Shown: piece after piece, positions 15,384 to 62,935 of the stretch
Layout: the number at the start of each line of letters is the position of its first letter
Numbering within the stretch: the first letter of the stretch is position 1
NCBI GenBank assembly: GCA_046726375.1
Contig: JBKPAJ010000045.1
Span: forward strand, 52 to 64,051
From: Acidobacteriota bacterium
Lineage (GTDB): Bacteria > Acidobacteriota > Vicinamibacteria > Vicinamibacterales > UBA2999
Direction: 5' to 3'
Length of the DNA: 64,000 nucleotides
Translations under genes and position numbers: made by a program
The notes under the pieces: model-generated
The model's database searches: none
Seen by the model: only the letters and a program-made list of their open reading frames with translations
Told to the model about the DNA's origin: nothing

Positions 15384-15414
15384 CCACGAGCTCCACGCAA
15401 CGCGGAGATCGCAG

Positions 15415-33903: not shown

Positions 33904-35297
33904 TGCCGTATTGGGCGACACAGATCTTCTATCTCCTTTCCGCGATTCTCTTCATCGTCGGCCTCAAACGGATGAACAGCCCCGCGACGGCGCGGAGGGG
34001 CAACCTGATCTCGCTCGTCGGCATGCTGCTGGCAATGGCTGTGACGCTCCTCGATCAGACGATCGTGTCGTACTGGATCATCCTTGCCGGTGTCGCGGTC
34101 GGCACCACGCTTGGACTGTGGCAGGCCTACTCGGTACGAATGACGGCGATGCCGCAGATGGTTGCGCTCCTCAATGGATGGGGCGGCGGCGCGTCGATGG
34201 TGGTGAGCGCGGCGGAGTTCCTGCGCTCACATCAGGGCAACGCGCTCATTCCTACACAGACGGGCATCGTGATGCAGGCAGGTCTGCTGATTGGCGGCGT
34301 GACACTGACTGGGAGTCTTATCGCGTTCGCGAAGCTTCAGGAATGGATGACGGGCCGTCCGATCACGTTCCGCGGGCAGAACGCGTTCAACGCGCTGGTG
34401 TTTTTGACGCTCGTCGGACTCGCGTGGTGGCAGGTATCAACGGAAGTGCCGCTGCTGGTGCCTTTTTATCTGCTCTGCGCGTTGTCGCTGGTGCTCGGCG
34501 TGTTGCTGGTGATTCCGATCGGCGGCGCCGACATGCCCGTCGTCATCTCTCTGCTCAATTCGTACTCAGGCATCGCCGCGGGAATGACCGGGTTTGTGAT
34601 CAACAACGAAGTGTTGATCATCGCGGGCGCGCTGGTCGGAAGCTCCGGCATTATTCTGAGCCAGATCATGTGCAAGGCGATGAATCGTTCGTTGATGAAC
34701 GTGCTGTTCGGCGCCTTTGGGACGCATACGACGGCCGCCGGCGGCGCCAAATCCGCGGCCGGTCTCACGGTGAAATCGATCATGCCCGAGGATCTGGGTG
34801 TGCAGGTCGCGTACGCGCAAAAGATGATTGTCGTGCCCGGCTACGGGATGGCGGTGGCGCAGGCACAGCACCAGGTGCGTGAACTGGCCGATCTCGTCGA
34901 GAAACGTGGCGGCACCGTGAAGTACGCAATCCATCCCGTCGCCGGCCGCATGCCAGGTCACATGAACGTGCTGCTCGCGGAAGCGAACGTTCCTTACGAT
35001 CGCTTGTACGAGATGGACGAAATCAATCCCGAGTTCGATGAAACAGACGTCTGCCTCGTGATTGGCGCCAACGACGTGGTCAATCCGGCCGCGCGTCACG
35101 ACACCGGCTCGCCGATTTACGGCATGCCGATCATCAACGCCGACAAGGCGAAGATGTGTGTCGTGCTCAAACGGTCGATGGCCGCCGGGTTTGCCGGGAT
35201 TGAAAACGAGCTGTTCTACGCGCCGCGCACGTGGATGCTCTTTGGCGATGCCAAACAGAGCTTGCAGAAGTTGATCTCGGAAGTGAAACAGGCCTGA
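33903..35297 (+). CDS. pntB: NAD(P) transhydrogenase subunit beta (second copy)
   Basis: It has the same dIII motifs as the first copy ([42 protein letters not shown]). Confidence 0.9.
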   Translation: MPYWATQIFYLLSAILFIVGLKRMNSPATARRGNLISLVGMLLAMAVTLLDQTIVSYWIILAGVAVGTTLGLWQAYSVRMTAMPQMVALLNGWGGGASMVVSAAEFLRSHQGNALIPTQTGIVMQAGLLIGGVTLTGSLIAFAKLQEWMTGRPITFRGQNAFNALVFLTLVGLAWWQVSTEVPLLVPFYLLCALSLVLGVLLVIPIGGADMPVVISLLNSYSGIAAGMTGFVINNEVLIIAGALVGSSGIILSQIMCKAMNRSLMNVLFGAFGTHTTAAGGAKSAAGLTVKSIMPEDLGVQVAYAQKMIVVPGYGMAVAQAQHQVRELADLVEKRGGTVKYAIHPVAGRMPGHMNVLLAEANVPYDRLYEMDEINPEFDETDVCLVIGANDVVNPAARHDTGSPIYGMPIINADKAKMCVVLKRSMAAGFAGIENELFYAPRTWMLFGDAKQSLQKLISEVKQA

Positions 35298-48578: not shown

Positions 48579-48867
48579 CGTCGGACTTGACCGAGGCGAT
48601 GCACTCCAGTCCGTTCGTTGACGAGACGTCGACGTTGTGCATCTGGAACCTTGACGTGAAGCTGACCACAGGCGATGAGATGCGCGACCGCATCATCGAC
48701 GCGCTTGACCCTCGTCCGAGTTCGTGGATAAGATCGCAGCCTCAATCGACGGGATCTCGGTCCTCCCCTTCGGCAAATTCTTTGGGGGCGCGAAGGTGTG
48801 TCATCACAGTTCCATCGCGGACTCGCGGCCTGGGCAACTGTCCTCCAGCGCCCCGGAGTCCTAGCCG

Positions 48868-49515
48868 TTGGCCCAGATTTTTCCCCCTTGGTGGAACAAG
48901 CTGCCGATCGTCGCCGCCATCGCGGGCGTCCTCGCGCCGACGCTCGCCGTCGCGGGCGTCTGGTACTACTTTTCCCCGTGGTACACAGACGTTGGCTACC
49001 GTCCGGTTCAGCCCGTCCCGTACAGCCACAGGCTCCACGTCGGCGAGCTTGGTCTCGATTGCCGCTACTGTCACGCCTCGGTCGAGATTTCTAACGTCGC
49101 CAACGTTCCGCCCACACAGACGTGCTTGAACTGCCATCAGACCGTGAAGCGGGACAGCCCGCTGCTCGCACCGATTCGGGACAGCGCCCAGAGTGGCCGG
49201 CCGATGCACTGGATTCGCATTCACAAGCTTCCCGACTATGCCTATTTCACACACCGCGCGCACGTGTCGGCAGGAATCGGCTGCGTGACCTGCCACGGCC
49301 GCATCGACGAAATGGAAACGGTCACCCAGATGACGCCGCTCAGCATGAGCTGGTGCCTCGACTGCCACCGCAACCCGGGTCCGAATAGACGCCCGGTCTC
49401 GGAAGTCACCAACATGAAGTGGACGCCTCCGCGGGACATACAAGCGCTCACGGCGCAGCTCGACCGCGAACGACCGGTCAATCCGCCGACTGAGTGTTCG
49501 GGGTGCCACCGGTGA
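48868..49515 (+). CDS. actA: Alternative complex III subunit ActA-like pentahaem cytochrome c
   Basis: An N-terminal TM helix is followed by VGYRPVQPVPYSHRLHVGELGLDCRYCH. Five CxxCH motifs are present (CRYCH, CLNCH, CVTCH, CLDCH, CSGCH). The start codon is TTG. Confidence 0.85.
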   Translation: MAQIFPPWWNKLPIVAAIAGVLAPTLAVAGVWYYFSPWYTDVGYRPVQPVPYSHRLHVGELGLDCRYCHASVEISNVANVPPTQTCLNCHQTVKRDSPLLAPIRDSAQSGRPMHWIRIHKLPDYAYFTHRAHVSAGIGCVTCHGRIDEMETVTQMTPLSMSWCLDCHRNPGPNRRPVSEVTNMKWTPPRDIQALTAQLDRERPVNPPTECSGCHR

Positions 49516-52500
49516 GTCGGACCTACTGGCGAAGTCTCGCGCAGATCGAGGACCGCCCCGAATTCCGCGCCGCTCTCGAGCGCGAATTCCCGGAGGGTGC
49601 CTCGGAGCTTCCTGCAGGGATCACCCGGCGCGAAATGATGATGCTCGTGGGTGCCTCGCTGTCGCTCGCGGGGCTCGCGGGGTGCCGGCGCCCGGTCGAA
49701 GAGATTGTCCCCTTCGTCACCGCTCCCGAGGAGATCGTCCCCGGGATCCCGCGCTACTACGCCACGACAATGCCGTTCGGCCGGAGCGCCTACGGCCTGA
49801 TCGTCGAGAGCCACGAAGGGCGACCGACCAAGATCGAGGGAAACCCCGCGCACCCCTCGACCCTCGGAGCCTCCAGCTCGCGCGTCCAGGCATCCGTGCT
49901 CGGCCTCTACGATCCTGACCGCTCGCAAGCCGTCAGGTTGAAAGGGGAGCGGAAGGCCTGGAGCGATTTCGTGACCGCTTGGGGACCGCTGTCCGAGGCT
50001 CATGCAGCGGATGGGGGCGCCGGCCTTGCGGTCCTCTGCGAGTCCTTCTCCTCGCCAACTCTGGCGCGCTTGGGCGTCGAACTCCGTGCTCGCTATCCGA
50101 AAGTACAGTGGGCGACCTACGACGCCGTCAGCGACGAGAACCGGCTCGCTGGTCTGCGGTCCGCCACGGGGCGCGGCCTCGACCTCATGCTCCGGCTCGA
50201 TCAAGCGTCCGTCATCCTCACCCTCGACGCCGACCCGCTCCTGACCGACCCCGAGATGATCCGTCACACCCGGGACTTCGCGGCCGGAAGGCGTGCCGGA
50301 GCCTCGGGTGGCGCGATGAACCGACTCTACGCTGTGGAAGGGGTCTACTCGCTGACGGGAGCCATGGCGGATCATCGGCTTCGTCTCGAGAGCCGCCAGA
50401 TCGCGCCCTTCCTCGCCGCCCTCGCTGTACGCCTTGCTCCGCCCGCGGCTGGAGCCGCGATCCAAGCGGCAGCGAGCGTCCCGGGTGTCGACCCGCGCTG
50501 GATCGACGCGCTTGCCAAGGACCTTCTGGCGAACCGCGGCAAGGGGTTGATCGTGGCTGGGGAACGCCAGCCCGCCGCCGTCCATGCCGCCGTCTGCGCC
50601 CTGAACACGTATCTCGGCAATACCGGCAGGACGGTCACCTACTTCGAGACGAAGGACGCGGCGCTTCCGAGCGTGAGCTCGCTGGCCTCGCTCGCCTCCG
50701 CGATGAAAGCGGGATCGGTCCAGACGCTGGTCGTCCTCGGCGGCAATCCTGTGTTCGATGCCCCCGCCGATCTCGACTTCGCGTCGGCCATGGCGAAGGT
50801 CCCTCACTCGATCGCGCTCGGGCACACGGTCGACGAAACATCCTCCAACGCGGAGTGGCATATCCCTCGTGCTCACTACCTCGAATCGTGGGGAGACGCG
50901 CGCGCGATAGGAGGCGCGCTCAGCGTCGTGCAGCCGCTGATCCTCCCCCTGTTTGGCGGACGAAGTCCCGTTGAAGTGCTGGGGCTGATGGTCGGGGGCA
51001 AGGATAGTCCCGGCTACGACATCGTGCGCGAGACCTGGAAACCGATCCTCGGCGAGGGCGAGTTCGACAAGAAGTGGAACCGCGTCCTGCACGATGGATT
51101 CCTTGCCGGCAGCGAGCTTCCCGAAGTCCTTCCGGATCTCACCAAGGAGCCCTTTGCCGATCTCGCGCGCCTGATCGGAGGCGCGAGCGGAGCCGGATCC
51201 CGGGCCGATGCGGGATCTCCGGGTGGCCTGGAGATCGTGTTTCTCCCATCCCCGTGTCTTCACGACGGCCGATTCGCCAATAACGGGTGGCTGCAGGAGC
51301 TTCCCGATCCCCTCACCAAAATCACGTGGGACAACCCCGCGCTCGTGAGCCCCAAGACCGCCCAGTCACTCGGTCTTGCGAATGAGGAAGTAGTCCGTCT
51401 CGATTATGCGGGCCGCTCGCTCGAGCTCCCCATCTGGATCCTCCCCGGCATGGCCGACGGCGTGGTGGCCCTCACCCTCGGCTACGGTCGTCAGCGCGCA
51501 GGGCGGATTGGGTCCGGGGTCGGGTTCGACACGTTCATGGTCCGATCGTCCCGCGCAACTGGCTTCGACAACGGCGTCAAACTTACCAGGCTCGGACGCA
51601 AGTACCCGCTTTCACCGACGCAGGACCACGGCAGCATGGAGGGCCGTCCCCTCGTCCGCGAGTCGACGCTGGCCGAGCTTCGATCGGACCCGGCCTCGCA
51701 GTCAGCACGAGCCGAGAGCGCGCATGAGGGGAGTTCGCCACAGGCCCCCAAAGGAGGAGGAGTCCCCGGCACACTTGGCGTCTTCGAGGAGGAACCGCAT
51801 CACTTCTCACTCTGGAAGGAGCATACCTACGATCAGGGCCACCAGTGGGGGATGACCATCGACTTGAACGCCTGCATCGGCTGCAACGCGTGCATGACGG
51901 CGTGCCAGAGCGAGAATAACGTGCCGGTTGTCGGCAAGATCCAGGTTGCGAAACAGCGCGAGATGCACTGGCTGCGGGTCGACCGGTACTTCTCCGGCGA
52001 GCCCTCCGGCAGCCCGGAGGTCGTTTTCCAGCCAGTTCCCTGCATGCAGTGCGAGGATGCCCCTTGCGAGCAGGTCTGCCCCGTGGCCGCGACCGTCCAC
52101 GACAGGGAGGGCCTCAATGTGATGGTCTACAACCGGTGCATCGGGACCCGATACTGCTCGAACAACTGTCCCTACAAGGTTCGCCGCTTCAATTTTTTCA
52201 ACTTCACCAAGGACACGCCCGACATCCTCAAACTCGCGATGAACCCGGACGTCACGGTCCGCGCGAGGGGCGTCATGGAGAAGTGCACCTACTGCACGCA
52301 GAGGATCAGTCGGGCGAAGATCGATGCGAAGCTCGCGGGGCGCGCGCTCCGTGACGGCGACGTCAAGACGGCCTGCCAGCAGGCCTGCCCGGCCTCGGCC
52401 ATCGAGTTCGGAGATCTTCGGGACGCGTCGAGCCGGGTCGTGAAGGCGAAGGCCGACCCGCGCAACTACGCGCTCCTCGACGAGCTGAATACCAGGCCAA

Positions 52501-52607
52501 GGACGACCTATCTGGCCAAGGTGCGCAACCCGAATCCGGACCTCGAGGGCGCGCGGACCGACGCGGGAGCCTGGCCCGCAGAGAAGGAAGAAAGGCCCGT
52601 TTCATGA
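49512..52607 (+). CDS. actB: Alternative complex III subunit ActB-like (Tat-exported molybdopterin-oxidoreductase-like domain fused to a 4Fe-4S ferredoxin domain)
   Basis: The N-terminus is YWRSLAQIEDRPEF, the Tat signal is ITRREMMMLVGASLSLAG, and HEGRPTKIEGNPAHP is present. The ferredoxin half has CIGCNACMTAC, CMQCEDAPCEQVCP, CIGTRYCSNNCPYKVRRFNFF and CQQACP. A GTG start overlaps the actA stop. Confidence 0.9.
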   Translation: MSRTYWRSLAQIEDRPEFRAALEREFPEGASELPAGITRREMMMLVGASLSLAGLAGCRRPVEEIVPFVTAPEEIVPGIPRYYATTMPFGRSAYGLIVESHEGRPTKIEGNPAHPSTLGASSSRVQASVLGLYDPDRSQAVRLKGERKAWSDFVTAWGPLSEAHAADGGAGLAVLCESFSSPTLARLGVELRARYPKVQWATYDAVSDENRLAGLRSATGRGLDLMLRLDQASVILTLDADPLLTDPEMIRHTRDFAAGRRAGASGGAMNRLYAVEGVYSLTGAMADHRLRLESRQIAPFLAALAVRLAPPAAGAAIQAAASVPGVDPRWIDALAKDLLANRGKGLIVAGERQPAAVHAAVCALNTYLGNTGRTVTYFETKDAALPSVSSLASLASAMKAGSVQTLVVLGGNPVFDAPADLDFASAMAKVPHSIALGHTVDETSSNAEWHIPRAHYLESWGDARAIGGALSVVQPLILPLFGGRSPVEVLGLMVGGKDSPGYDIVRETWKPILGEGEFDKKWNRVLHDGFLAGSELPEVLPDLTKEPFADLARLIGGASGAGSRADAGSPGGLEIVFLPSPCLHDGRFANNGWLQELPDPLTKITWDNPALVSPKTAQSLGLANEEVVRLDYAGRSLELPIWILPGMADGVVALTLGYGRQRAGRIGSGVGFDTFMVRSSRATGFDNGVKLTRLGRKYPLSPTQDHGSMEGRPLVRESTLAELRSDPASQSARAESAHEGSSPQAPKGGGVPGTLGVFEEEPHHFSLWKEHTYDQGHQWGMTIDLNACIGCNACMTACQSENNVPVVGKIQVAKQREMHWLRVDRYFSGEPSGSPEVVFQPVPCMQCEDAPCEQVCPVAATVHDREGLNVMVYNRCIGTRYCSNNCPYKVRRFNFFNFTKDTPDILKLAMNPDVTVRARGVMEKCTYCTQRISRAKIDAKLAGRALRDGDVKTACQQACPASAIEFGDLRDASSRVVKAKADPRNYALLDELNTRPRTTYLAKVRNPNPDLEGARTDAGAWPAEKEERPVS

Positions 52608-53209
52608 ACGTCCGCACACGTCGCGTGCTGGGCGCGCTCGCGTTGACCTCTCTTTTCGCCCTCCCCGGCTGCGCGCGCGGCTGCACGTCGAGCCGTCCTC
52701 CCATCCATCTCAACCCGAGCATGGACGACCAGCCGAAGGTCCTCTCGCAGACGGCCAGCGATTTCTTCTTCAACGGTGCGTCCATGCGCGAGCCCGTTCC
52801 GGGAACGGTCCCGATCGGCGGGCTGAAGGAAGACACGGCCTTCTTCACCGGAAAGGGGGCGGACGGACAGTTCGTCGCGGCGATCCCCCATCCCGTGGAC
52901 GAAGCGCTTCTCGAGCGCGGCCGCCAGCGCTACGCGATCTACTGCCAGCCTTGCCACGACGCTCGAGGGGACGGCAAGGGGATCCTGTTCCAGCGAGGCA
53001 ACGTCCCCACCGCTACATTCCACCAGGACAAGATCCTGAACTACACGGACGGGCAGATCTTCGACGTCATCACGAACGGGGTAGGGCTGATGCCGGCGTA
53101 CCGCTGGCCGATCCCTCCTGCGGACAGGTGGGCGATCATCGCCCACGTGCGAGAGCTCCAGCGCAAGCGCCAGGCGAGCGCCACTGTCGCGCCCGCGGGT
53201 ATCAAGTGA
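52604..53209 (+). CDS. actE: ActE-like lipoprotein monohaem cytochrome c
   Basis: It has a lipobox-like FALPGC and a single CQPCH. The motifs GVGLMPAY and DRWAIIAHVRELQ are present. The start overlaps the actB stop (ATGA). Confidence 0.75.
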   Translation: MNVRTRRVLGALALTSLFALPGCARGCTSSRPPIHLNPSMDDQPKVLSQTASDFFFNGASMREPVPGTVPIGGLKEDTAFFTGKGADGQFVAAIPHPVDEALLERGRQRYAIYCQPCHDARGDGKGILFQRGNVPTATFHQDKILNYTDGQIFDVITNGVGLMPAYRWPIPPADRWAIIAHVRELQRKRQASATVAPAGIK

Positions 53210-53223
53210 GTGAGGGAGGCACC

Positions 53224-55158
53224 ATGTCCAATGGCGTGATGAACGGCGCGATGAACCGGAAGGTGTTGTTCCTTCTCGGTCCCGTCACCGTCCTGGTGAT
53301 GTTCGCCGCGGTAGTGTGGATGGCTTCGCAACTGGTGAGCCGCGAGTACAGGGAGCCTTACCGAGCCCCTGCCGCGACCGCGGACCCGACGCCACGCACG
53401 GAAGGACTGGTCGCCGAAAGGGCCGATGCGGAGGCGAAGGCGCGGGCGAAGCCATACGAAGAGGTCGAATACCGGACTGTTCCGGTTGTCGGAAGCCGCG
53501 TGGCCATCTGGGCGGTCGCGCAACTCCACCTGCTATTTGCGGCGTTCGTCCTTGCCGTCCCAATCTTCGCGTTCATCATCGAGGTGATTGGCTACAAGAC
53601 CGGAGATCTGCGATACGACCGGCTCGCGTACGAGTTCACAAAGCTGCTCTCCACCTCCTTCTCACTCACCGCAACCTTCGGAGCGTTCCTGACGTTCATG
53701 CTCATCATTCTGTATCCGAAGTTCACGAACTACCTGATGAGCGTGTTCTCCCCCACCTTTCTGCCGTACGTGCTGCTCTTCTTCGCCGAGGCCTTCTTCC
53801 TCTACACCTATTACTACGGCTGGGGGAAGTTCCATCCCTTGGTTCATCTTGGCCTGGGGCTCGGCCTCAACCTCGTGGGCACGGGGATCATGCTCATTGC
53901 CAACGCCTGGCTCACGTTCATGATGTCGCCGCGGGGGGTTTCGGACCAAGGGGCGGTTCTCTCCGTCTGGGACGCGGTCTACAACCACACGTGGATGCCG
54001 ATCAACGTCCATCGCGTCATCGCGAACATCGCGTTCGGCGGATCGGTCGCGGCCGCCTACGCCGCCTTCAAGTTCCTGCAGGCGGAAACCGACGAGGACC
54101 GGGCGCACTACGACTGGATGGGTTACATCGGTAACTTCGTCGCGATCAGCGCCTTCCTCCCGCTTCCCTTCGCCGGCTACTGGCTCGCGAAGGAGATCTA
54201 CGCGTTCTCGCAGACGCTCGGGCTTACGATGATGGGCGGGGCTTTCTCGTGGCTCTTCATCATCCAGGCCGTATTGATTGGGAACCTTTTCCTCGCCGCC
54301 AATTACTATCTCTGGCTCGGGATGGGGCGGGTCGAGGGGGTGCAGCCGCTTCAGAAGGTCATTAAGTACCTTCTCATCGGGATTGCGCTCTGCTTCGCGG
54401 TCTGGGCGACGCCGCGGTCGATCATCGCAACCGTTTCCGAACTCCGGGCAATGGGAGGGTCGACACACCCGATTCTCGGTTACCTCGGTGTCATGTCGGC
54501 CAAGAACACCGCCGTGAACATCCTGATCCTCACGACGTTCATGAGCTTCCTTCTATATCGCCGGACGGGAAAGGTCGCCACGGTCGCGTGGGCAAAGATG
54601 GGGCATGCGGCGCAGCTCACCATCTTCGCGGGTGCCGCGATCTTCGTCATCTTCCTCGGCATCTATGGGTACTTCGTCGAGGCAACGGTCCGGATCGGTC
54701 TGTCCGTGCCGCAAGTCAGCTCGGTTCTCGTCGCCATGGTGTCGATCACGGCCATCGACCTCTTCCTCTTCCGCGGGGCGAGGAAGACGGGCGAGGTACG
54801 GTGGGGAAGGATGCCCGCGGTCTCCCAGTACGTGCTGATCTTCATCGCGGTCACCTTCACCTGGCTCATGGGGCTCATGGGCTACGTTCGCTCCGGGCTC
54901 CGTCAGCATTGGCACGTGTACGGCGTCATTCGTGACAACTCGGCCGACGCGTTCACGCCCACCCTTGGGTTCGCGACGCGGGTTATCTCGGTGACCGTTC
55001 TCGCGTTCTTCCTCTTGATCGGGTTCGTGTTCTGGATCACGAGCCTGCATGACCGGCCCGATTTCAAGGCGGCCAAGGCCCGCCTCCGCCCACACTCTGA
55101 CGAGATGGAGCCGGAGTTCGCCATGGAAACGGCAGCCGAACATAGGCAGACGTCATGA
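53224..55158 (+). CDS. Cytochrome bd-like (CydA-family) ~14-TM membrane protein without a recognisable Q-loop
   Basis: By-eye alignment to E. coli CydA gives AVAQLHLLFAAFVLAVP ~ LTAMYHFLFVPLTLG, FFAEAFFLYTYYYGWGKF ~ FFLESTFVGLFFFGWDRL, LIANAWLTFMMSP ~ LVANGWMQNP, and INVHRVIANIAFGG ~ KFVHTVASGYVTG. A GAGGGAGG RBS precedes the ATG at 53224. Confidence 0.75.
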   Translation: MSNGVMNGAMNRKVLFLLGPVTVLVMFAAVVWMASQLVSREYREPYRAPAATADPTPRTEGLVAERADAEAKARAKPYEEVEYRTVPVVGSRVAIWAVAQLHLLFAAFVLAVPIFAFIIEVIGYKTGDLRYDRLAYEFTKLLSTSFSLTATFGAFLTFMLIILYPKFTNYLMSVFSPTFLPYVLLFFAEAFFLYTYYYGWGKFHPLVHLGLGLGLNLVGTGIMLIANAWLTFMMSPRGVSDQGAVLSVWDAVYNHTWMPINVHRVIANIAFGGSVAAAYAAFKFLQAETDEDRAHYDWMGYIGNFVAISAFLPLPFAGYWLAKEIYAFSQTLGLTMMGGAFSWLFIIQAVLIGNLFLAANYYLWLGMGRVEGVQPLQKVIKYLLIGIALCFAVWATPRSIIATVSELRAMGGSTHPILGYLGVMSAKNTAVNILILTTFMSFLLYRRTGKVATVAWAKMGHAAQLTIFAGAAIFVIFLGIYGYFVEATVRIGLSVPQVSSVLVAMVSITAIDLFLFRGARKTGEVRWGRMPAVSQYVLIFIAVTFTWLMGLMGYVRSGLRQHWHVYGVIRDNSADAFTPTLGFATRVISVTVLAFFLLIGFVFWITSLHDRPDFKAAKARLRPHSDEMEPEFAMETAAEHRQTS

Positions 55159-55778
55159 TGATCCCGCACACTGTCAGGGTCGGCGCTCTCGTTATCGCAG
55201 CGACTTCGTTCTATACATACGTCGGCCAGCTGGTACCGCAGAAGGAAGTTCTGCCTCCGCAGGAGACTGTGATCAGATCCGACCTGACCACAGCCGACAT
55301 GGTCAAGGTAGGCCGCGAGATCATGGACGGCAAAGGACTCTGCTTTACCTGCCATACGATCGGCAAGACGGGGGCGCTCCGGTTCCCCGACCTCGAGGGA
55401 GTCGATGCCCGTGCGCAGAGCCGCGTCCCCGGCCTGAGCGATGTCGAGTACTTCGCTCAATCGATCTACACACCTGACGCCTTCATCGTGCCGGGATTCA
55501 ATCCGGGCATGCCCGTCATCAACAAGCCGCCGATCGGCCTCACCGATCAGGAGATCCTCTGCGTGATCGCGTACCTCCAGAGTCTTGGCGGCACGCCGAC
55601 GGTCACGCTCCAGACGAGTCACCGCTTCTACACTGCCCCGGCCACAGCCGGCGCGGCGCCAGGTGCGCCTCCGACCGCGCCGGGCGAGAAGTTGCCCCTC
55701 GTCGCTCCTCCGGCCGAGAATGCCGCGCCGGGCGCGGCGACGGTACCCGCAGCCCCCGGGAAGGCAGTGAAACAATGA
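55155..55778 (+). CDS. Membrane-anchored monohaem class-I cytochrome c with Ala/Pro-rich tail
   Basis: It has an N-terminal TM helix, a CFTCH motif, and a distal GMPVINKPP region. The tail is AGAAPGAPPTAPGEKLPLVAPPAENAAPGAA. The start overlaps the previous stop (ATGA). Confidence 0.75.
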   Translation: MMIPHTVRVGALVIAATSFYTYVGQLVPQKEVLPPQETVIRSDLTTADMVKVGREIMDGKGLCFTCHTIGKTGALRFPDLEGVDARAQSRVPGLSDVEYFAQSIYTPDAFIVPGFNPGMPVINKPPIGLTDQEILCVIAYLQSLGGTPTVTLQTSHRFYTAPATAGAAPGAPPTAPGEKLPLVAPPAENAAPGAATVPAAPGKAVKQ

Positions 55779-56593
55779 ACCTCCTCGTCGTCCTCGCCGT
55801 GGCCGCCGCGTTCGTGCTCCTTCGCTTCCGTCGGGCCAATCTGCTGATATGGGCCTGCGCCTGGTGGGTGGGGATCTATGTCCTCCTTCGATTTGGATTC
55901 ACTGCCCCGATTCCCTCCTCTGTTGTCAAGATCTACATGGGAATCAGCTCGATTGCGATCCTGGCGTACATGTCCTCCAGCCAGGAGCGTCGCCAGGAAG
56001 TCTCCCGCCCGCTGATCCGGCTCATGACCGACAGGCGGTACACAGTGCTGCTCTTCGCAATGGTCGTCGCCCTTCCGGCGCTCGCGGCCGCGAACGTTTA
56101 CGTCACCATGAACGCGCCCCTCGAGCCTCCCTTCTTCCCGCGCACGATTCATCCTGCATCGCCTTCCGAAATCACGGTTCACGACAAGAAGATCGCGATC
56201 GACACCGGAGATAGCCCCTTCCGACATCTCGAAACGTCGAGTCCGGAAGAGTTCCGCAAACATCTCGAGAACGGCCGCCGGGTCTATTACCGGAACTGCG
56301 TCTTCTGCCACGGCGACAACATGGCCGGCAACGGCATGTTCGTGCACGGGCTGAACCCGATCCCGACCAACTTCGCCGATGGGGACACGATCGCGAACCT
56401 TCGAGAGACATTTCTGTTCTGGCGAGCCGCTAAGGGAGGCCCCGGGCTGCCCGACGAAGGCGGGCCTTGGGACACGGCCATGCCCGCCTGGGAGAACTTC
56501 CTGAAGGAAGACGAGATCTGGGATGTGATCCTCTTTATCTACGATTTCACGGGCGAGAGGCCGCGCGCCAGAGAGGAGGTCGCGCAGCAATGA
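55775..56593 (+). CDS. Membrane protein (3-4 TM helices) fused to a monohaem cytochrome c domain
   Basis: Hydrophobic helices span residues 1-110. These are followed by a CVFCHGDNMAGNG motif and a distal AMPAW. The start overlaps the previous stop (ATGA). Confidence 0.7.
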   Translation: MNLLVVLAVAAAFVLLRFRRANLLIWACAWWVGIYVLLRFGFTAPIPSSVVKIYMGISSIAILAYMSSSQERRQEVSRPLIRLMTDRRYTVLLFAMVVALPALAAANVYVTMNAPLEPPFFPRTIHPASPSEITVHDKKIAIDTGDSPFRHLETSSPEEFRKHLENGRRVYYRNCVFCHGDNMAGNGMFVHGLNPIPTNFADGDTIANLRETFLFWRAAKGGPGLPDEGGPWDTAMPAWENFLKEDEIWDVILFIYDFTGERPRAREEVAQQ

Positions 56594-58284
56594 TCTCTCG
56601 CCTGGTAGCCCACGGGTGCGTCGTCGTGGTGCTCGCTTTGTCGGGTGTCGCGCCGGCGGGATTGGTGCGCGCGCAGGGCCCCGACCTTGGCACCGAGGCG
56701 CAGCGGGAGTCGGGCAAGAACACCTATCTCAAAAACTGCTCGCAGTGTCACGGCGAAAAAGGGGACGGCGAAGGCTACGCCACGCCGCATCTCCTCCCCA
56801 AGCCGCGCAACTTCACAACGGGCAAGTTCAAGGTTCGCACGACGCCCAACGGAGCGCTTCCTACGCACCAGGACCTCGTCAACATCATCAGGCGCGGCAT
56901 GCCCTACACTTCGATGCCCGCCTGGCCCAACTTCTCCGACCAGGAAGTATCGGATCTTGCCTACTTCATAAAGACTTTCTCCGCCGACTTCTCCAACCCC
57001 GAGCTTGCCCCCCAACCGGTTTCGTTGCCGAGCGCGCCGAGCACCACGAAAGAGTCAATCGAGCTCGGGAAGAAATTGTACGAGGAGACCGGTTGCGTAA
57101 AGTGCCACGGCACGCTCGGTCGAGGCGACGGACCTTCGGCTTCAACGCTGGTGGACGAGTGGAACCATTTGATACGCGCGGCGGACCTCTCGCAAAGGTG
57201 GACCTTCCGGGGAGGTTCGACTCGCGAGGATATCTTCCGGACGATGACCACAGGACTCAACGGCACGCCGATGGCGTCCTTTTCCGACGCCCTTACGCCC
57301 GAGCAACGATGGGCGATCACAGACTTCATCGTCTCTCTCTCGGCGAGCGACGGGCCTGGCTATACCAACCTCGTCGTCGCCAAACACGTTCAGGATCCGA
57401 TCGATCTGACGAAGGGCGCCGCGAACTTCGAATCCGCGGCTGTCGCACGCTTTCCGATCATCGGACAGATCATGGAGCCCGGACGCGCGTTCCATCCTCC
57501 CGCCACCTCCGTGACCGTTCAGGCAATCTACGACGCGGAGTCGATCGCCCTCCTCGTTCGATGGCACGACATGAGCGCGCAGAGGACCGGAAAGAACGAG
57601 CCGTCGCTTCCCGTGCCGCCGGAGGAGGAGGAGGAGGAGGAAACCGTCGCTCCGAAGGGGGGCATCTTTGGCGAGGAGGAAGTCGCCCAGCCTCCGGCCC
57701 AGGACCCCTTTGCGGAACCCGCCGCCGCGGCGACCGCCGCGCCATCGGAGTTCTCCGACGCCGTCGCCATCCAGATCCCTTCGCAGGTGCCAACCGGCGC
57801 CCGCAAGCCCTACTTCATCTTCGGTGACGGCCAGAACTCAGTGGATCTCTGGTTCTTCGATTTGGCGCGCCCCGATCCGCTTCAGTTCACGGGCCGGGGA
57901 AGCGCGAACGTCGCGCCCAACGACACGGGGGATGTCACCGGCGTCGCGAGCTACGACCAGGGAGAATGGTCAGTCGTCTTCAAGCGGCCCCTTCGCGCAT
58001 CCGCGGGCGCCGCGTTTACCCCCGGAGAATTCATGCCCATCGCCTTCTCAGTCTGGGACGGGTTCTCGCGTGAGCGTGGCAATCGGCGAGGTCTCTCGTT
58101 GTGGTACTCCCTCTACGTCGAGCCCGAAAACGTCCCCTCGGCCATCGGCCCGATGGTTAGGACTGCGCTCTTGATCCTCGTCATCGAGTTGGCAGTCATC
58201 GGCTGGGGGCGATCGCGTTACGGTTCTCGGACCCGCGACGAGATTGGCGGTGAGGGGAGACAGCACCCGGCCACGAGCGTTTGA
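56590..58284 (+). CDS. Di-haem cytochrome c fused to an EB_dh/DOMON-type haem-binding domain, with a C-terminal TM anchor
   Basis: A signal peptide is followed by CSQCH and CVKCH with MPAW/GTPMA distal regions. The EB_dh-like stretches are AIYDAESIALLVRWHD, DAVAIQIPS...KPYFIFGDGQNSVDLWFF, GEWSVVFKRPL and IAFSVWDGFSRERGNRRGLSLW. There is an acidic insert PPEEEEEEE and a terminal helix TALLILVIELAVIGW. Confidence 0.7.
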   Translation: MISRLVAHGCVVVVLALSGVAPAGLVRAQGPDLGTEAQRESGKNTYLKNCSQCHGEKGDGEGYATPHLLPKPRNFTTGKFKVRTTPNGALPTHQDLVNIIRRGMPYTSMPAWPNFSDQEVSDLAYFIKTFSADFSNPELAPQPVSLPSAPSTTKESIELGKKLYEETGCVKCHGTLGRGDGPSASTLVDEWNHLIRAADLSQRWTFRGGSTREDIFRTMTTGLNGTPMASFSDALTPEQRWAITDFIVSLSASDGPGYTNLVVAKHVQDPIDLTKGAANFESAAVARFPIIGQIMEPGRAFHPPATSVTVQAIYDAESIALLVRWHDMSAQRTGKNEPSLPVPPEEEEEEETVAPKGGIFGEEEVAQPPAQDPFAEPAAAATAAPSEFSDAVAIQIPSQVPTGARKPYFIFGDGQNSVDLWFFDLARPDPLQFTGRGSANVAPNDTGDVTGVASYDQGEWSVVFKRPLRASAGAAFTPGEFMPIAFSVWDGFSRERGNRRGLSLWYSLYVEPENVPSAIGPMVRTALLILVIELAVIGWGRSRYGSRTRDEIGGEGRQHPATSV

Positions 58285-58310
58285 GCTGATTGGGCCATCC
58301 GGAGGATCCG

Positions 58311-60350
58311 ATGTACAAGAGCATTTACGTTCCCGTCGATAACTCAGACCACTCCAACCGCGCGGTCGCTTGCAGCGTGGCGTTGGGCAAGGCGTTCTCC
58401 GCAAAGCTGGTCGGCTGCCATGTCTACGCGGCAAAACTGCACGACTATCGCTTCAGGCAGATGGAGTACACCCTGCCGGAGGAGTACATCGACGAGGTTG
58501 AACTGGAGCGCCAGCGGAAGATCCACGACAGCCTCATCACGATGGGTCTTAAGCTCATCTCCGACAGCTATCTCGATGGCATGTCGCGTCTCTGCGGCGA
58601 GTCGGGCCTCAGGTTCGAGCCGCGGATGATGGACGGGAAGCATCACATCGAGATCCTCAAGGACCTCGCCGGCTCACAGCACGACTTGGTCGTGATCGGC
58701 GCCCTGGGAGTCGGTCGCGCACGCGACAGCGTGATCGGCTCGGTCTGCGAACGTGTCGCGCGCCAGTCCGACCGCGACGTCTGGGTAGTCAAGCACGTAC
58801 CCGAGCCAGGCGAGCCGGAGCGCGACACGATTCTGGTCGGCATCGACGGCAGCCCACAGTCATTCGGCGCGCTGATGACCGCCATCGAACTGGCACGCAC
58901 GTTCGGCAAGCAGATCGAAGCGATCGCCGTGTACGACCCCTATCTGCACTACTCCGTCTTCAACGGCATCGTCAACGTCCTCACCGAGCAGGCGGCCAAG
59001 GTCTTTCGCTTCGAGGAGCAGAATCAGCTTCACGAGGAGATCATCGACACCGGACTCGCGCAGATCTATCAGTCGCATCTCGAGGTGGGCGAGCGGATGG
59101 CGAGCGAGGACGGCGTCACGATCAAGAAGACGCTCCTCGACGGCAAACCTTTCCAAAAGATCCTCGACCACGCGCGCAAAACGAATCCGTGGCTGATCGT
59201 GGTAGGGCGCATCGGAGTCCACAGCCCGAAGGACGAGACGGGGCTCGGGAGCAACGCGGAGAACATTCTCCGCGCCGCACACTGTGATGTCCTCCTCTCG
59301 ACGCGACTGGAAGTGCCCCGGCTCGACGTGCGCGCCGAGGAGACCGTCCGATGGACGCCCGAAGCCGAGGCGCGCATGCAGAATGTGCCCGAGCAGGTCA
59401 AGGGGATCGCCCGTACCGGCGTTCTTCGTCTGGCGCTCGAGAAGGGGCATTCGGTGATCACGAGCGCCGTGATCGATGAAGCAATGGATCGGTTCATGCC
59501 GAAGAGCGCTTCGGCTGCGACGAAGGCGCTGGCCGAGGCAGTGGCGCTCGAGCGGGCGAAGTCCGGCCCCGTCTCGCTCTGCCGGTCGTGCGGCGTCGCC
59601 GCCACGCAAAGCGGCGCGGTCAAGTGCACCGTCTGCGGCGCCACGGATTTCGAGGTGATCTCGCAGGAGATGATCGAGAAGATCGCCGCGGTGGAGGGCG
59701 GGCTCGAGGAAGAGACGACCTATGACGGACGCAAGCTGCGCTGGTCTGAGGACGCACGGAAAGGCCTCTGGACCATGAAGAACGCGTATCAGCGCCGCCG
59801 CGTCAAGGCGCGTGTCGAAAAGCGCGCGCGCATGATGAAGCTCGACGCGATCACGCTCGATTTCGCACGACAGGTAATCGAGGAGGAGACCGGAGCGCCG
59901 CTCGAGGTCCAGGGTCGTGGCGCGCAAATCCCTGAGAGCGCTGCCGCTGCAGCGGGCGAGGCCCGGCTCGTGGCGCGCGACGACAAGAAGAATCCGCTGA
60001 TCTCCACGTTCGCGTGGACAGACGAGGCCGCGCAGAGGATCCTTCGGGTTCCGGCCGGTTTCATGCGCAACAAAACGCAGGAGAGGATCGAGGAGCTTGC
60101 GCGGGAGCGCGCCGCGACGACGATCGATCTTGGGCTCGTCGAAGAGGGAATCGAGATCGGCAAGCGGATGATGGCCGAGATGATCGCGAACTACCCGTCA
60201 CAGGGCAAGAGCCCTGGAGTCGCGACGGCGGCGCCGGATTCGGCAGCCAACTCCGCGACATCCAATGGCAACGGCTACCTCAATGAGGTAAGTGCGCGGC
60301 CGCCTGTGACGACCGAGCGACCTGCGTCCCGCGACCATCGGGAGACGTGA
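58311..60350 (+). CDS. Multidomain protein: 2 x universal stress protein domains + zinc ribbon + three PCP_red-like (protochlorophyllide-reductase-B C-terminal-like) domains
   Basis: The USP starts are MYKSIYVPVDNSDHS and ILVGIDGSPQS, each with a ...VVGRIG/VIGALG end. The zinc ribbon is CRSCG..CTVCG. The three PCP_red-like repeats are VRWTPEAEARMQNVPEQVKGIARTGV, LRWSEDARKGL and FAWTDEAAQRILRVPAGFMRNKTQERIE. A GGAGGA RBS is present. Confidence 0.6.
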   Translation: MYKSIYVPVDNSDHSNRAVACSVALGKAFSAKLVGCHVYAAKLHDYRFRQMEYTLPEEYIDEVELERQRKIHDSLITMGLKLISDSYLDGMSRLCGESGLRFEPRMMDGKHHIEILKDLAGSQHDLVVIGALGVGRARDSVIGSVCERVARQSDRDVWVVKHVPEPGEPERDTILVGIDGSPQSFGALMTAIELARTFGKQIEAIAVYDPYLHYSVFNGIVNVLTEQAAKVFRFEEQNQLHEEIIDTGLAQIYQSHLEVGERMASEDGVTIKKTLLDGKPFQKILDHARKTNPWLIVVGRIGVHSPKDETGLGSNAENILRAAHCDVLLSTRLEVPRLDVRAEETVRWTPEAEARMQNVPEQVKGIARTGVLRLALEKGHSVITSAVIDEAMDRFMPKSASAATKALAEAVALERAKSGPVSLCRSCGVAATQSGAVKCTVCGATDFEVISQEMIEKIAAVEGGLEEETTYDGRKLRWSEDARKGLWTMKNAYQRRRVKARVEKRARMMKLDAITLDFARQVIEEETGAPLEVQGRGAQIPESAAAAAGEARLVARDDKKNPLISTFAWTDEAAQRILRVPAGFMRNKTQERIEELARERAATTIDLGLVEEGIEIGKRMMAEMIANYPSQGKSPGVATAAPDSAANSATSNGNGYLNEVSARPPVTTERPASRDHRET

Positions 60351-61192
60351 GCGCCTACCGCTTCTGCCGCACGGATGACATCGCGCTTCTCGTTGACGCG
60401 CTGAATCGCTGCTGGGCTCCGTACTTTCCCGACGAGCCGCCCATGACGCCAGCCGCGTTCAAGCGGTCGATCCGCGACCTTCAGGTCTGGTGCAGCAGCT
60501 GCATGGTCGCCTTCTCCGGTTCCGACCCGATCGGCGTGCTCATCGGCGCCAAGCGGCCTTCCGGCACCCTCGTCTACAAGATTGCCGTCCATCCCGATCA
60601 TCGTCGACAGGGTCATGGGCGTCACCTGCTCGCCTCGCTGGGCTCGAAACTCGCGATTCTCGGCCCGCCGAGAATTGTTGCCGAGGTCCCCGAGACTCTC
60701 GCGCCTGCTCACGCGCTGTTCAGCGCAAGCGGATATGTCCAGGAAGCGCTCCTGACTGACTACGTCTTACAGTGTGAAGAGAAAGGCGGCGAACAAAGCG
60801 GATTCGTGATCCCTGTCACGATCGACGATCTCGCCGCCAATGATCTTCTTGGAGAGGCTCAGGTTTGCTGGAAGCGCTCCGTGGAGACTCTCACTGCAAC
60901 GAAGGACGACATCGCGGGACTCGCCGTCGTCGCCGACGAGCGAATCGAAGCCTACCTCCTGTACGTAAAGCGCGGAATGGAGGAGACGGAGATTCTATCG
61001 CTCCGCTGTTTCATCGATGATGGTGGAGCGCGTTTGAAGCAACTGCTGTCGCGACTCCGCGCGCGACACACGGAGACCTTCCGGTTCCCAAAGGTCCACC
61101 CGGCCGAGGTCTCGAAGGAGTGGCTGGAGAAGCTCGGTTTCAGCCCTGACGGTGGGCACTTACTCTACGCAACGAGAGCGCGGTCCGCTTGA
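60347..61192 (+). CDS. GNAT-family N-acetyltransferase (two-lobed)
   Basis: Acetyl-CoA motif A is IAVHPDHRRQGHGRHLL. A GTG start overlaps the previous stop (GTGA). Confidence 0.7.
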   Translation: MSAYRFCRTDDIALLVDALNRCWAPYFPDEPPMTPAAFKRSIRDLQVWCSSCMVAFSGSDPIGVLIGAKRPSGTLVYKIAVHPDHRRQGHGRHLLASLGSKLAILGPPRIVAEVPETLAPAHALFSASGYVQEALLTDYVLQCEEKGGEQSGFVIPVTIDDLAANDLLGEAQVCWKRSVETLTATKDDIAGLAVVADERIEAYLLYVKRGMEETEILSLRCFIDDGGARLKQLLSRLRARHTETFRFPKVHPAEVSKEWLEKLGFSPDGGHLLYATRARSA

Positions 61193-61193
61193 T

Positions 61194-61406
61194 TCAGTAA
61201 CGAGCTCCTCGCGCTTCGTCTGCACCCGGTCGAGTTTGTCGGGCCCCACCAACGTCAGGGCCAATGTCGGGGTGGCCACGCGGCTTCCACCATGTAAACC
61301 AAGTGTGTCCGTGCGCTCTCCCGCGACGGATGTACCAGATGTAGTACGGCACCCACAGCCCGATTAAGAGCACGAGCGCGATTGTGAGGCCAATCGAGAT
61401 GTCCAT
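61194..61406 (-). CDS. Small single-TM protein, unknown function
   Basis: 70 aa. A GGGAGGAG RBS lies 8 nt upstream of the ATG. The N-terminal helix is ISIGLTIALVLLIGLWVPYYIWYI. It is convergent with the GNAT gene. Confidence 0.45.
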   Translation of the reverse strand: MDISIGLTIALVLLIGLWVPYYIWYIRRGRAHGHTWFTWWKPRGHPDIGPDVGGARQTRPGADEARGARY

Positions 61407-61562
61407 TGCTCAGCTCCTCCCGTGCAAAGATCTCTGATGCAAGCGGCGATCCTGGCGGCGAGCTCGTCTTGCGCGGCTGCGACGGTGTAAGCTATCAACC
61501 CTCGCCCTTCACAAACTCAGGCCGAGGCTGAACAAGGTCGAAGGTCCGGAACATCGGCAAAG

Positions 61563-62471
61563 ATGAAGCGCTACCACGAGATCGTCGGCGACGGAGGGTC
61601 CAGAATTCTCGAGCAGGTTGCCGAGCAACGCACCCGCATCACCGATGGGCTCGCCGCCGTGCGTCATCTCGTGGCCGTGGGCTCCGGCAAAGGCGGAGTC
61701 GGCAAGAGCACTTTGACGCTACATCTCGCGAGCGCTCTGCGCGCCCGGGGGCTTCGGATTGCGATCCTGGACGCGGACCTCAACGGCCCTTCACTGGCGC
61801 GCATGGCGGGTGTCCAACGTGCGCTGTTCGTCCCCGGCAGCAACAAGGTCGCGCTCCCGCGCACCGGGACCGGAATTGGCGTCTTCTCGATGGGCTCGGT
61901 GATCCCCGAATCGGAGGCGCTCGAGTTCGAGAGTGCGGCGCACGGAGAGTCCCACACGTGGCGCGCCACGAGGGAGTTTGCTCTCCTGGGCGAGATCCTC
62001 GGGTCCTTCGAGTGGGGAACGCTCGATCTGCTGATGTTCGATCTGCCGCCGGGAGCCGAGCGGACCGTACAGTACGCCGATTTTCTTGGGCCGCGGACCT
62101 CGTTCCTGCTCGTGACCATCCCTTCCGAGGTGGCACGCGGCGTGGTCGCGCGCTCGGTGGCAGCTCTGTCGAAGGGACCTAATCGCCTCCTCGGTTACGT
62201 CGAGAATATGAGCGGCTACTACTGCCGCGACTGCGACGCCATCAAGCCGCTGTTCGTGTCACCCGAACCCTTCGACGACGCTCAGGACAGGCGATCGGGC
62301 TTGGGGATCCCCTGCCTCGGGACCGTCCCATTCGATCCCGAGCTTGCACGGCACTGCGATCGGGGGACCTCCCTCGCGGAACTGCCCAACACACCCGTTG
62401 GCCGCGCCCTGGAGCATGTTGCGCAGCAACTTCTGGGCAGCCTCGGATCCACAACGGAGCCTTCCCGATGA
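61563..62471 (+). CDS. Mrp/NBP35/ApbC-family P-loop ATPase (Fe-S cluster carrier)
   Basis: The deviant Walker A is VGSGKGGVGKST. The motifs DADLNGPS and DLPPG, and the CxxC motif YYCRDCD, are present. Confidence 0.85.
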   Translation: MKRYHEIVGDGGSRILEQVAEQRTRITDGLAAVRHLVAVGSGKGGVGKSTLTLHLASALRARGLRIAILDADLNGPSLARMAGVQRALFVPGSNKVALPRTGTGIGVFSMGSVIPESEALEFESAAHGESHTWRATREFALLGEILGSFEWGTLDLLMFDLPPGAERTVQYADFLGPRTSFLLVTIPSEVARGVVARSVAALSKGPNRLLGYVENMSGYYCRDCDAIKPLFVSPEPFDDAQDRRSGLGIPCLGTVPFDPELARHCDRGTSLAELPNTPVGRALEHVAQQLLGSLGSTTEPSR

Positions 62472-62935
62472 AGTTCCTCTGCATCCCCTGCGACAGCCCG
62501 ATGAAGCTCCAAACCATCGGTCCGCCCGAGCGCGGCTCGCTGTCGGTCGTCTACTCGTGTCCTGAGTGCGGATACGAAATCGCGATGCTCACCAATGCGT
62601 ACGAAACGCAGATCGTCCAGTCACTCGGCGTGCGGGTCGGCCCCGAGGGCGGCACAGCGGAGGAAGGCACGTCCGACAGCCGCTGCCCGTTCAACGCGAT
62701 GATTCCGGCGATGGATGATGCGCGACCCTTCGACGCTGCTCAGGGCAGGCCCGATCAGGCCGACGAGCCGATTACCGTTCGGTGGACTGCCGCCGCGGAA
62801 GCCCGTCTCGCAAAGGTTCCCGAGTTCGTCCGCCCAATGGCGAAGAGCGGCATCGAGAGATTCGCCCGAGAGCGGGGAGCACTGGAGGTTGACGAGAACG
62901 TCCTGGACGCTGCCCGTGAGTTCTTTGGTATGTAA
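62468..62935 (+). CDS. Zinc-ribbon + PCP_red-like domain protein
   Basis: The N-terminus has CIPC...CPEC. The C-terminal stretch VRWTAAAEARLAKVPEFVRPMAKSGIERFARERG resembles the PCP_red repeats of 58311-60350. The start overlaps the Mrp stop. Confidence 0.6.
   Translation: MKFLCIPCDSPMKLQTIGPPERGSLSVVYSCPECGYEIAMLTNAYETQIVQSLGVRVGPEGGTAEEGTSDSRCPFNAMIPAMDDARPFDAAQGRPDQADEPITVRWTAAAEARLAKVPEFVRPMAKSGIERFARERGALEVDENVLDAAREFFGM

Follow-up and report, generated by a model that had tools for sequence, protein, structure and literature searches.

The OR-N members of the cytochrome bd superfamily are defined by the absence of a quinol site, none of the canonical quinol residues having been reported for them. 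OR-N2 is the 14-helix homologue of CydA that lacks this site, and its operons typically carry several cytochromes c and a homologue of EbdC (Murali, Gennis and Hemp 2021). In bacteria that oxidise nitrite or manganese, OR-N enzymes are regarded as the principal oxidases, and TO_1 is the most highly expressed oxidase candidate in Manganitrophus. Such proteins have also been met beside genes of alternative complex III (ACIII): in the Nitrospirales, actABCDE (with ActC included and ActB split into B1 and B2) is followed by CydAA' of the OR-N5 type, and TO_3 of Manganitrophus resembles this arrangement, with act genes and then bd-like genes. In Kuenenia, Nitrospira, and Nitrospina, the NXR clusters encode a 14-helix bd-like protein together with NxrABC, an alternative NxrC, and cytochromes c of the mono- and dihaem kinds, and it has been suggested that the bd-like protein might work as an alternative complex III does (Lucker et al. 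2013). This study concerns an operon of seven genes at positions 48868-58284 of a 64-kb stretch of DNA from a soil bacterium of the Acidobacteriota (64,000 nucleotides of contig JBKPAJ010000045.1, hereafter the window). In this operon a block encoding ActA, ActB, and ActE lies directly 5' of an OR-N2 module, with no ActC, ActD, or ActF encoded locally. The bd-like half of the arrangement was already known; it is the block in front of it, lacking those three, that is new.

The original prediction, made from the DNA of the window, was of a new respiratory complex, with an ActABE-linked architecture that might be undescribed. As to the complex, the linkage between ActABE and the bd-like gene is indeed conserved, but the bd-like protein, the c-type cytochromes, and the EbdC-like domain make up the OR-N2 module already described, which is found also without ActABE. 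As to the architecture, a literature search that fell short of all journals found no published account of ActA, ActB, and ActE adjoining a bd-like gene without ActC, yet ACIII with OR-N5 (ActC included) and NXR with a 14-helix bd-like protein have both been published. The reading tentatively preferred here, held with somewhat less than even confidence, is that the products form one assembly, an ACIII arm wired to an OR-N2 haem core, and that the core reduces oxygen.

The seven open reading frames all run in the same direction, and their stop and start codons overlap or nearly touch (Table 1). The junctions are those predicted: GTGA at 49512 and ATGA at 52604, 55155, 55775, and 56590. Between actE and the bd-like gene there is a gap of 14 nt, and a GGGAGG ribosome-binding site precedes the ATG at 53224. 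The start codon of actB is either the GTG at 49512 or that at 49494. The predicted total of 10 CxxCH motifs was also found (five in ActA, one each in ActE, cyc5, and cyc6, and two in cycEB). The G+C content is about 63% across the whole window.

Table 1. Genes of the operon, downstream companion genes, and a promoter-like site, by position in the window.
Feature	Positions	Strand	Evidence
Promoter-like site, TTGACC-18-TAAGAT	48705..48734	+	about 135 nt 5' of actA; consensus match alone; weak
actA, pentahaem cytochrome c with N-terminal membrane helix	48868..49515	+	6F0K_A 1.2e-76, full length
actB, Tat-exported fusion of molybdopterin-oxidoreductase-like and four-cluster Fe-S parts	49512..52607	+	6F0K_B 5.7e-302
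actE, monohaem cytochrome c lipoprotein	52604..53209	+	6F0K_E 3e-55
bd-like gene, OR-N2-type CydA homologue with about 14 membrane helices	53224..55158	+	PF01654 1.2e-23
cyc5, membrane-anchored monohaem cytochrome c	55155..55778	+	PF00034 9e-7; CFTCH
cyc6, membrane domain of about four helices with monohaem cytochrome c	55775..56593	+	PF13442 3.5e-9; CVFCH
cycEB, dihaem cytochrome c, EB_dh domain (EbdC/NxrC-type), and C-terminal membrane helix	56590..58284	+	PF00034 5e-24; PF09459 5e-18
Gene for two Usp and two PCP_red domains	58290..60350	+	Pfam Usp 1.4e-38, PCP_red 2.6e-22
GNAT acetyltransferase gene, start overlapping the preceding stop	60347..61192	+	Pfam
NUBPL/Mrp-type P-loop ATPase gene	61563..62471	+	PF10609 1e-50
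Gene for small PCP_red-domain protein, overlapping the ATPase gene	62468..62935	+	PF08369 1.3e-15

Judged by their sequences, ActA, ActB, and ActE are true subunits of ACIII and go beyond being merely ACIII-like. They had been predicted to be textbook examples, and each is in fact a full-length homologue of its counterpart chain in the ACIII of Rhodothermus marinus (6F0K; Table 1), matching other solved ACIII structures as well (8K9E, 6LOD, 6BTM). ActA has one membrane segment and five CxxCH motifs, and its haem ligands, at 10 Cys and 10 His positions, are each 98-100% conserved in 44 orthologues. ActB carries a variant of the Tat signal (TIGR04519 at 2.4e-11), and among NCBIfam families it matches QrcB (5e-19) and QrcC (1e-63). 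Its Fe-S part contains 15 Cys residues arranged 4+4+3+4, all of them 100% conserved in 35 orthologues, a pattern consistent with three [4Fe-4S] clusters and one [3Fe-4S] cluster. There is no N-terminal Cys cluster (the FS0 motif) within the first 780 residues, and the molybdopterin-domain matches in Pfam are faint, falling below the cut-off. In solved ACIII the alpha-like half of ActB holds no molybdenum cofactor. With neither cofactor nor Cys cluster, this half would thus not be a site where a substrate is oxidised. In ActE, the CQPCH motif is 100% conserved among orthologues of related loci, and the lipobox residue Cys23 97%. Since all haem and Fe-S ligands are conserved at 97-100% in 35-44 orthologues, the ACIII arm is under selection and hence functional. 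A further residue of ActB, Cys64, closes the Tat signal (LAGLAGC, in the open reading frame 49494-52607) and is 100% conserved in the 35 orthologues; ActB may therefore itself be anchored by lipid.

The product of 53224-55158 belongs, as predicted, to the CydA family and not to NrfD. The Pfam family Cyt_bd_oxida_I matches it over profile positions 2-239 of 418, and NrfD has no Pfam match in this or any other product of the operon. Searching the PDB with the protein sequence gave chains of CydA as the sole matches. An AlphaFold (AF2) model, built with 20 diverse homologues as input, has about 14 long helices (pLDDT 78, pTM 0.80), and when it was compared with the PDB by Foldseek, the ten best matches were all CydA (E from 2e-9 to 4e-6), followed by CydB. 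Neither ActC, PsrC, nor NrfD appeared among the Foldseek matches. One candidate considered, an NrfD- or ActC-like domain fused within the C-terminal two-thirds of the protein, was rejected, since Pfam gives no NrfD and Foldseek only CydA and CydB.

Aligned with CydA of E. coli, the protein has H102 at the position of His19, H263 at His186, E189 at Glu107, H208 at His126, and W563 at Trp441. Y182 takes the place of Glu99, M424/N428 fall at the Met393 position, and S557 is at Glu445. Together, these residues (H102, Y182, E189, H208, H263, M424/N428, S557, and W563) give the signature that Murali et al. list for OR-N2 in their Supplementary Table 6. The same signature is carried by the protein P0150, whose cluster is named Nitrospira sp./Candidatus Manganitrophaceae and which is 39% identical to the protein of the window over nearly its full length. 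The positions proposed as haem ligands are retained: among 70 sequences from related loci, 232 positions are conserved at 95% or more, including H102, E189, H208, H263, and M424. The signature, the number of helices, and the make-up of the operon all place the protein, at the level of sequence, within OR-N2, hence as a putative oxygen reductase without a quinol loop. No Q-loop quinol site was found, the Pfam match ending at position 239 of 418, ahead of the Q-loop region, and no gene of the Cyt_bd_oxida_II family, expected of a CydB partner, was found among the neighbours scanned. Three histidines outside the set of bd-haem ligands, H295, H415, and H564, are also at least 95% conserved in the 70 sequences, drawn from several phyla, and might be ligands of an additional haem or of a metal.

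The bd-like family is large. A word-index search of proteins returned 7,559 at E <=1e-5 among 8,000 candidates scored, and the best 120 bd-like proteins, one of them named Vicinamibacterales, are 85-100% identical to the protein of the window. Clustered at 50% identity, the family has 1,415 representatives. A motif scan built on an alignment of nine bd-like sequences confirmed at least 598 matches in a collection holding one genome per species. The survey of gene neighbourhoods considered 81 loci (the best 80 and one long ENA contig), with genes located by tblastn using the proteins of the window.

The predicted linkage proved to be conserved. Twelve of the 81 loci were left out of the count, their contigs ending too near the bd-like gene, and in 56 of the 69 informative loci ActA, ActB, and ActE are encoded directly 5' of it. 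The other 13 have 4.5 kb or more of upstream sequence and yet no ActA, ActB, or ActE. Where the linkage exists, gene order and strand are invariant, and the median gap, measured between ends of tblastn matches, is about 90 nt. Among the linked loci, the identity of ActB to that of the window goes as low as about 49%, and the identities of ActB and of the bd-like protein co-vary across loci (Spearman 0.90). All 56 linked loci group with sequences of Acidobacteriota (Vicinamibacteria, Thermoanaerobaculia, and Polarisedimenticolia). With the same arrangement found in 56 independent assemblies, neither chance nor misassembly explains it. Four loci with Act genes upstream (L010, L011, L019, and L071) are labelled Acidimicrobiia, cyanobacterium, Patescibacteria, and Gemmatimonadaceae, and their bd-like proteins are 80-89% identical to the window's; these labels are probably errors of binning or naming.

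Seven of the 13 loci that lack ActABE come from other lineages: Calditrichia, Rhodothermaceae/Rhodothermales, Bacteroidetes, Spirochaetaceae, Myxococcota, and one unnamed. Since the OR-N2 module occurs there without ActABE, it is the autonomous core, to which ActABE is an addition seen in no loci but those of the Acidobacteriota type. The other six (L012, L016, L020, L025, L026, and L078) are of the Vicinamibacterales type, nested among relatives that have the linkage. They encode bd-like proteins 80-90% identical to that of the window, with unrelated genes where ActA, ActB, and ActE would be expected. This suggests a recent loss or relocation of the arm or else a second copy of the module in the genome. 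The addition is thus one that can be lost or moved.

The predicted local absence of ActC, ActD, and ActF was also found on a wider view. Nothing of these subunits is encoded in the operon or in the 64-kb window, and among open reading frames of at least 200 amino acids with at least five predicted membrane segments, within 10 kb in the 81 loci, none matches NrfD. Those polytopic frames were clustered and the representatives checked against Pfam; they proved to be of the COX1, COX3, MFS, UbiA/CtaB, Wzy, MatE, and FtsX types, with two having no Pfam match. The membrane proteins of the window itself (MFS, DUF1206, PntA/B, rhomboid, FtsX, and similar, again with two having no Pfam match) include no NrfD. 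The notion of an actC/D/F set hidden nearby was accordingly rejected.

Perhaps, however, the operon encodes two units that merely share a transcript. ActABE, as a paralogous or partly relocated arm of ACIII, would then work with ActC, ActD, and ActF made elsewhere or serve as a free, membrane-tethered periplasmic wire, the OR-N2 unit would be independent, and the adjacency would be that of donor and acceptor in a superoperon, resembling that of ACIII and the caa3 oxidase. A survey detected ActC/ActF in 86% of its Acidobacteria (Calisto and Pereira), and canonical ACIII is thus widespread in that phylum. Superoperons of ACIII and oxidases are common in general. The OR-N2 module is, moreover, autonomous elsewhere. 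ActB itself resembles ActB of Rhodothermus (1008 bits) about as much as it does its orthologues in Thermoanaerobaculia (about 50% identity), which implies no visible divergence following the loss of a partner. Yet the order actA-actB-actE-bd, without actC/D/F, has been kept in three classes (going by locus titles) while ActB falls to about 50% identity, and overlaps of stop and start codons link the genes. It would also be unusual for one complex to be split over two loci in every lineage. This explanation is thus considered decidedly unlikely, and the discussion returns to a single assembly.

The three genes that follow the bd-like gene complete the module. The first, cyc5, adjoins the bd-like gene in 76 loci, and the CxxCH motif of cyc6 is 100% conserved in 72 sequences. 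The EB_dh domain predicted for the last gene, cycEB, was recognised by Pfam (Table 1); the protein also matches TIGR03477 in NCBIfam (1e-19), and its EB_dh part matches in the PDB both EbdC (2IVF_C, 1.8e-6) and NxrC (7B04_C, 7e-6). Candidate ligands for haem b in this domain are M328 and K406/K465. The dihaem part of cycEB, residues 39-251, matches chain B of 6H5L at 5.9e-54, other solved cytochromes being far more distant. The entry 6H5L is that of HAO from Kuenenia stuttgartiensis, and its chain B was named by the depositors a 'conserved hypothetical cytochrome protein'.

Haem-copper oxidase genes are found close by in some relatives. In 7 of the 56 linked loci, a co-directional caa3-type operon, COX2-COX1-COX3, lies just 5' of actA, and in Bacteroidetes and Rhodothermales the string COX1-COX3-COX4-COX2 leads on one strand directly into the bd-like gene, from which the haem-copper oxidase and the bd-like unit appear to share an operon. 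In two loci (L076, 5859-14894, and L077, 5798-12299), COX2 ahead of the bd-like module has an intact CuA motif (CAQLCGLSHYRM). Such genes nearby also suggest that the organisms carrying the module are aerobic.

These neighbours bear on the possibility that the bd-like protein is a quinone-interacting subunit that takes the place of ActC/ActF, making of the whole either an enzyme like complex III, as a quinol:cytochrome c oxidoreductase of a new kind, or a quinol oxidase. Electrons would pass from menaquinol, at a site in or near the 14-helix protein, through a b-haem to the [3Fe-4S] cluster of ActB and then by way of ActA and ActE to c-type cytochromes, ending at a haem-copper oxidase, possibly with a branch to oxygen. 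ActB is, after all, known to receive electrons from membrane-bound quinol, and in Rhodothermus ACIII the potentials of the Fe-S clusters and of the ActA haems suit a donor at the level of quinol better than cytochrome c. There is also precedent in the exchange of membrane anchors beneath four-cluster Fe-S subunits, where an anchor of the NrfD type may be swapped for one with haem b (NarI/FdnI), an established theme of the superfamily. To these may be added the caa3 operon that precedes actA at 7 of the 56 linked loci, the COX genes that run into the bd-like gene in Bacteroidetes and Rhodothermales, and the acidobacterial superoperons in which bc1 lies downstream (3') of the genes for A1 caa3. 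Finally, a role like that of alternative complex III was proposed for the bd-like protein of NXR clusters (Lucker et al. 2013).

Against this stands the lack of the quinol-binding loop, along with canonical quinol residues not being reported for OR-N, and analysis of the bd-like protein identified no quinone site. The conserved His of the oxygen site and the Glu channel would not be needed by a plain quinol:cytochrome c enzyme, the module functions without ActABE in many lineages, and the COX genes are adjacent in a minority of loci. Quinone interaction of this sort is therefore judged possible but rather unlikely. The original prediction had set the bd-like protein in the position of ActC and ActF, which overstates the case: a comparison of linked with unlinked loci gave no convincing adaptation of the bd-like protein specific to ActABE. 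The linked proteins differ only in a periplasmic segment at the N-terminus, which varies but keeps P77/Y78, and in some conservative substitutions. It is unlikely that a CydA-like 14-helix protein took over from the NrfD-type subunits as the partner of ActB in the membrane and gave rise, in abundant soil Acidobacteriota, to a class of respiratory enzyme not recognised before. In such an enzyme, a quinone-level donor wired through a b-haem and the Fe-S/multihaem arm to cytochrome c and a haem-copper oxidase would amount to a third kind of complex III, and the same donor wired directly to a bd-type oxygen site would make a quinol oxidase of a novel type.

In the preferred reading, that of an arm joined to an oxygen-reducing core, two known modules would come together in one membrane-bound respiratory assembly. 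One would be the OR-N2 unit (the 14-helix CydA homologue, two membrane-anchored monohaem cytochromes, and a dihaem cytochrome fused to an EbdC/NxrC-type domain) and the other the periplasmic arm of ACIII. In EBDH (2IVF) and NXR (7B04), a four-cluster Fe-S subunit docks on a haem-b subunit of the EbdC/NxrC type, and the docking subunits are homologues of the C-terminal half of ActB. Because EbdB docks on EbdC in this way and NxrB on NxrC, the four-cluster domain of ActB might dock, on the periplasmic side, most naturally on the EbdC-like domain of cycEB. Alternatively, it might sit straight above the low-spin haem (His263/Met424) in the bd-like protein. The six c-haems and four Fe-S clusters of ActABE would supply an additional wire into the haem centre of the bd-like protein. 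Oxygen would be reduced at the high-spin haem (His102), with cytoplasmic protons entering by way of the Tyr182/Glu189 channel, and this reduction would build membrane potential through charge separation. Gene content, family membership, conservation of cofactor ligands, and long-term linkage were observed directly. The physical association is inferred from synteny alone, and the electron donor, the direction of electron flow, and oxygen as acceptor are likewise inferred. Put more generally, the seven products presumably act as one complex in which electrons pass between the ACIII arm and the bd-like haem core, in one direction or the other.

Several considerations weigh against this reading. 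Strong conservation of OR-N2 is seen also where ActABE is lacking, both in other phyla and in the six close Vicinamibacterales, so that the module can do without ActABE. Beside the three c-type cytochromes that the module already has, another wire from the pool of cytochrome c looks redundant. The only known input to ActB in ACIII is quinol held in ActC, and a separate actC/D/F set may exist elsewhere in the genome. The sole feature of the bd-like protein specific to linkage with ActABE is the N-terminal periplasmic segment (residues 41-78), which is poorly modelled, and the candidate haem-b ligands of the EB_dh domain are just partly conserved (32-33 of 40 sequences). Searches of the literature and the PDB found no purified OR-N enzyme, no solved OR-N structure, and no report of oxygen reductase activity. 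Lastly, Kuenenia, described as strictly anaerobic, keeps the bd-like protein, and this makes oxygen reduction uncertain for the family.

The retention of the protein by Kuenenia also raises the possibility that the bd-like centre handles nitric oxide, peroxide, or some other oxidant, or that it runs in reverse, passing periplasmic electrons to the quinone pool, with ActABE in each case acting as a collector. A part in the detoxification of O2 and nitric oxide has been reported for canonical bd oxidases, and the extra conserved histidines, H295, H415, and H564, could accommodate a further metal or haem. Nonetheless, the residues of the oxygen site and the channel resemble those of relatives that reduce oxygen, and the carriers appear to be aerobic. 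Some other substrate or reverse flow thus seems very improbable, and reduction of oxygen by a core that ActABE helps to feed is retained as the tentative choice.

The operon does not stand alone. The block of genes at 58290-62935 accompanies the bd-like module across phyla, whether or not ActABE is present (examples include L057, L069, L073, and L076). The Usp/PCP_red gene is found 3' of the module in more than 50 loci, other phyla included, the GNAT gene in at least 39, the NUBPL-type ATPase gene in 35 (among them Calditrichia, Rhodothermaceae, and Bacteroidetes), and the small PCP_red gene in 30. The extent given in the original prediction therefore holds for the seven genes, but the conserved gene string probably runs past them, on to 62935. 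PCP_red is the C-terminal domain of subunit B of protochlorophyllide reductase, where it is positioned over a tetrapyrrole. The four companion proteins (Usp/PCP_red, GNAT, NUBPL, and small PCP_red) could be factors for the maturation or insertion of haem or another cofactor of the bd-like enzyme. In the Bacteroidetes locus L076, a gene at 15044-16147 for a radical SAM protein with a SPASM domain lies between cycEB and the Usp/PCP_red gene. Some radical SAM enzymes that modify tetrapyrroles (NirJ, AhbC/D) are built in a comparable way, and the gene in this one locus hints at a modified haem.

On the other side of the operon, 5' of actA, there are a subtilase gene, a small open reading frame on the reverse strand, and then a spacer of about 290 nt. 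The promoter-like site of Table 1, which lies in this spacer, is weakly supported, as four matches to the consensus were seen where 1.9 are expected. No terminator-like site stood out. Elsewhere in the window, pntB occurs twice, at 29403-30818 (-) and 33780-35297 (+), and a pntA-type gene is fused to a region of four transmembrane helices at 30828-32399 (-), so that the proton-translocating transhydrogenase is partly duplicated.

The locus is of interest on several counts. Bacteria of soils and sediments have the arrangement in abundance, and the OR-N2 module, widespread outside nitrifiers, is in Acidobacteriota tied to a well-understood electron-transfer arm. This provides a concrete handle on three questions: where OR-N enzymes obtain their electrons, whether they bind quinone, and how freely respiratory modules recombine. 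There is a practical consequence as well. Annotation pipelines may label such clusters 'ACIII' or 'cytochrome bd quinol oxidase', and neither label fits.

How, then, does the locus compare with systems already described? With ACIII (6F0K of Rhodothermus marinus, 6BTM of Flavobacterium johnsoniae, 6LOD, and 8K9E) it shares the make-up of ActA, ActB, and ActE and, in some relatives, an adjoining caa3 oxidase operon. It differs in that a gene of the CydA family follows actE and ActC, ActF, and ActD are absent locally. The Qrc complex of sulfate reducers (QrcABCD) is made of the same building blocks as ACIII and gives the best NCBIfam matches, QrcA for ActA and QrcB/QrcC for ActB. The scores, however, are far below the family cut-offs, and Qrc has QrcD, of the NrfD type, and no bd-like partner. 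In the Type II DMSO-reductase family (EbdABC, NxrABC), there is a catalytic molybdopterin subunit bearing FS0; the operon lacks such a subunit. Its Fe-S and EB_dh domains, the latter with haem-b ligand candidates in 32-33 of 40 sequences, would be putative counterparts of the four-cluster Fe-S subunit and of the haem-b gamma subunit. The NXR clusters have still more in common with it: an alpha/beta module of the molybdoenzyme type, four Fe-S clusters, an EbdC/NxrC-type domain, c-type cytochromes, and a 14-helix bd-like protein. Unlike NXR, the alpha-like half of ActB has no N-terminal Cys cluster, and the haems of ActA and ActE stand in for a catalytic site.

In gene order, the locus resembles the clusters of Nitrospirales and TO_3, with act genes directly 5' of bd-like genes. 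The Nitrospirales proteins are OR-N5a/b pairs of 10 helices each, whereas here there is a single 14-helix OR-N2 protein, without ActC or ActD. In the content of the module, it resembles the OR-N2 operons, as the last four genes of the present operon correspond to the published set (cytochromes c and an EbdC homologue), and the bd-like protein has its counterparts in the NIDE0901-like oxidase candidate of Nitrospirales and in TO_1 of Candidatus Manganitrophus. In the published descriptions of OR-N2 operons that were consulted, ActA, ActB, and ActE go unmentioned; here they are present, and there is no adjacent OR-N1 partner. The carriers differ as well. Where the OR-N2 bacteria known before oxidise nitrite or manganese, those considered here are Acidobacteriota and presumably heterotrophic.

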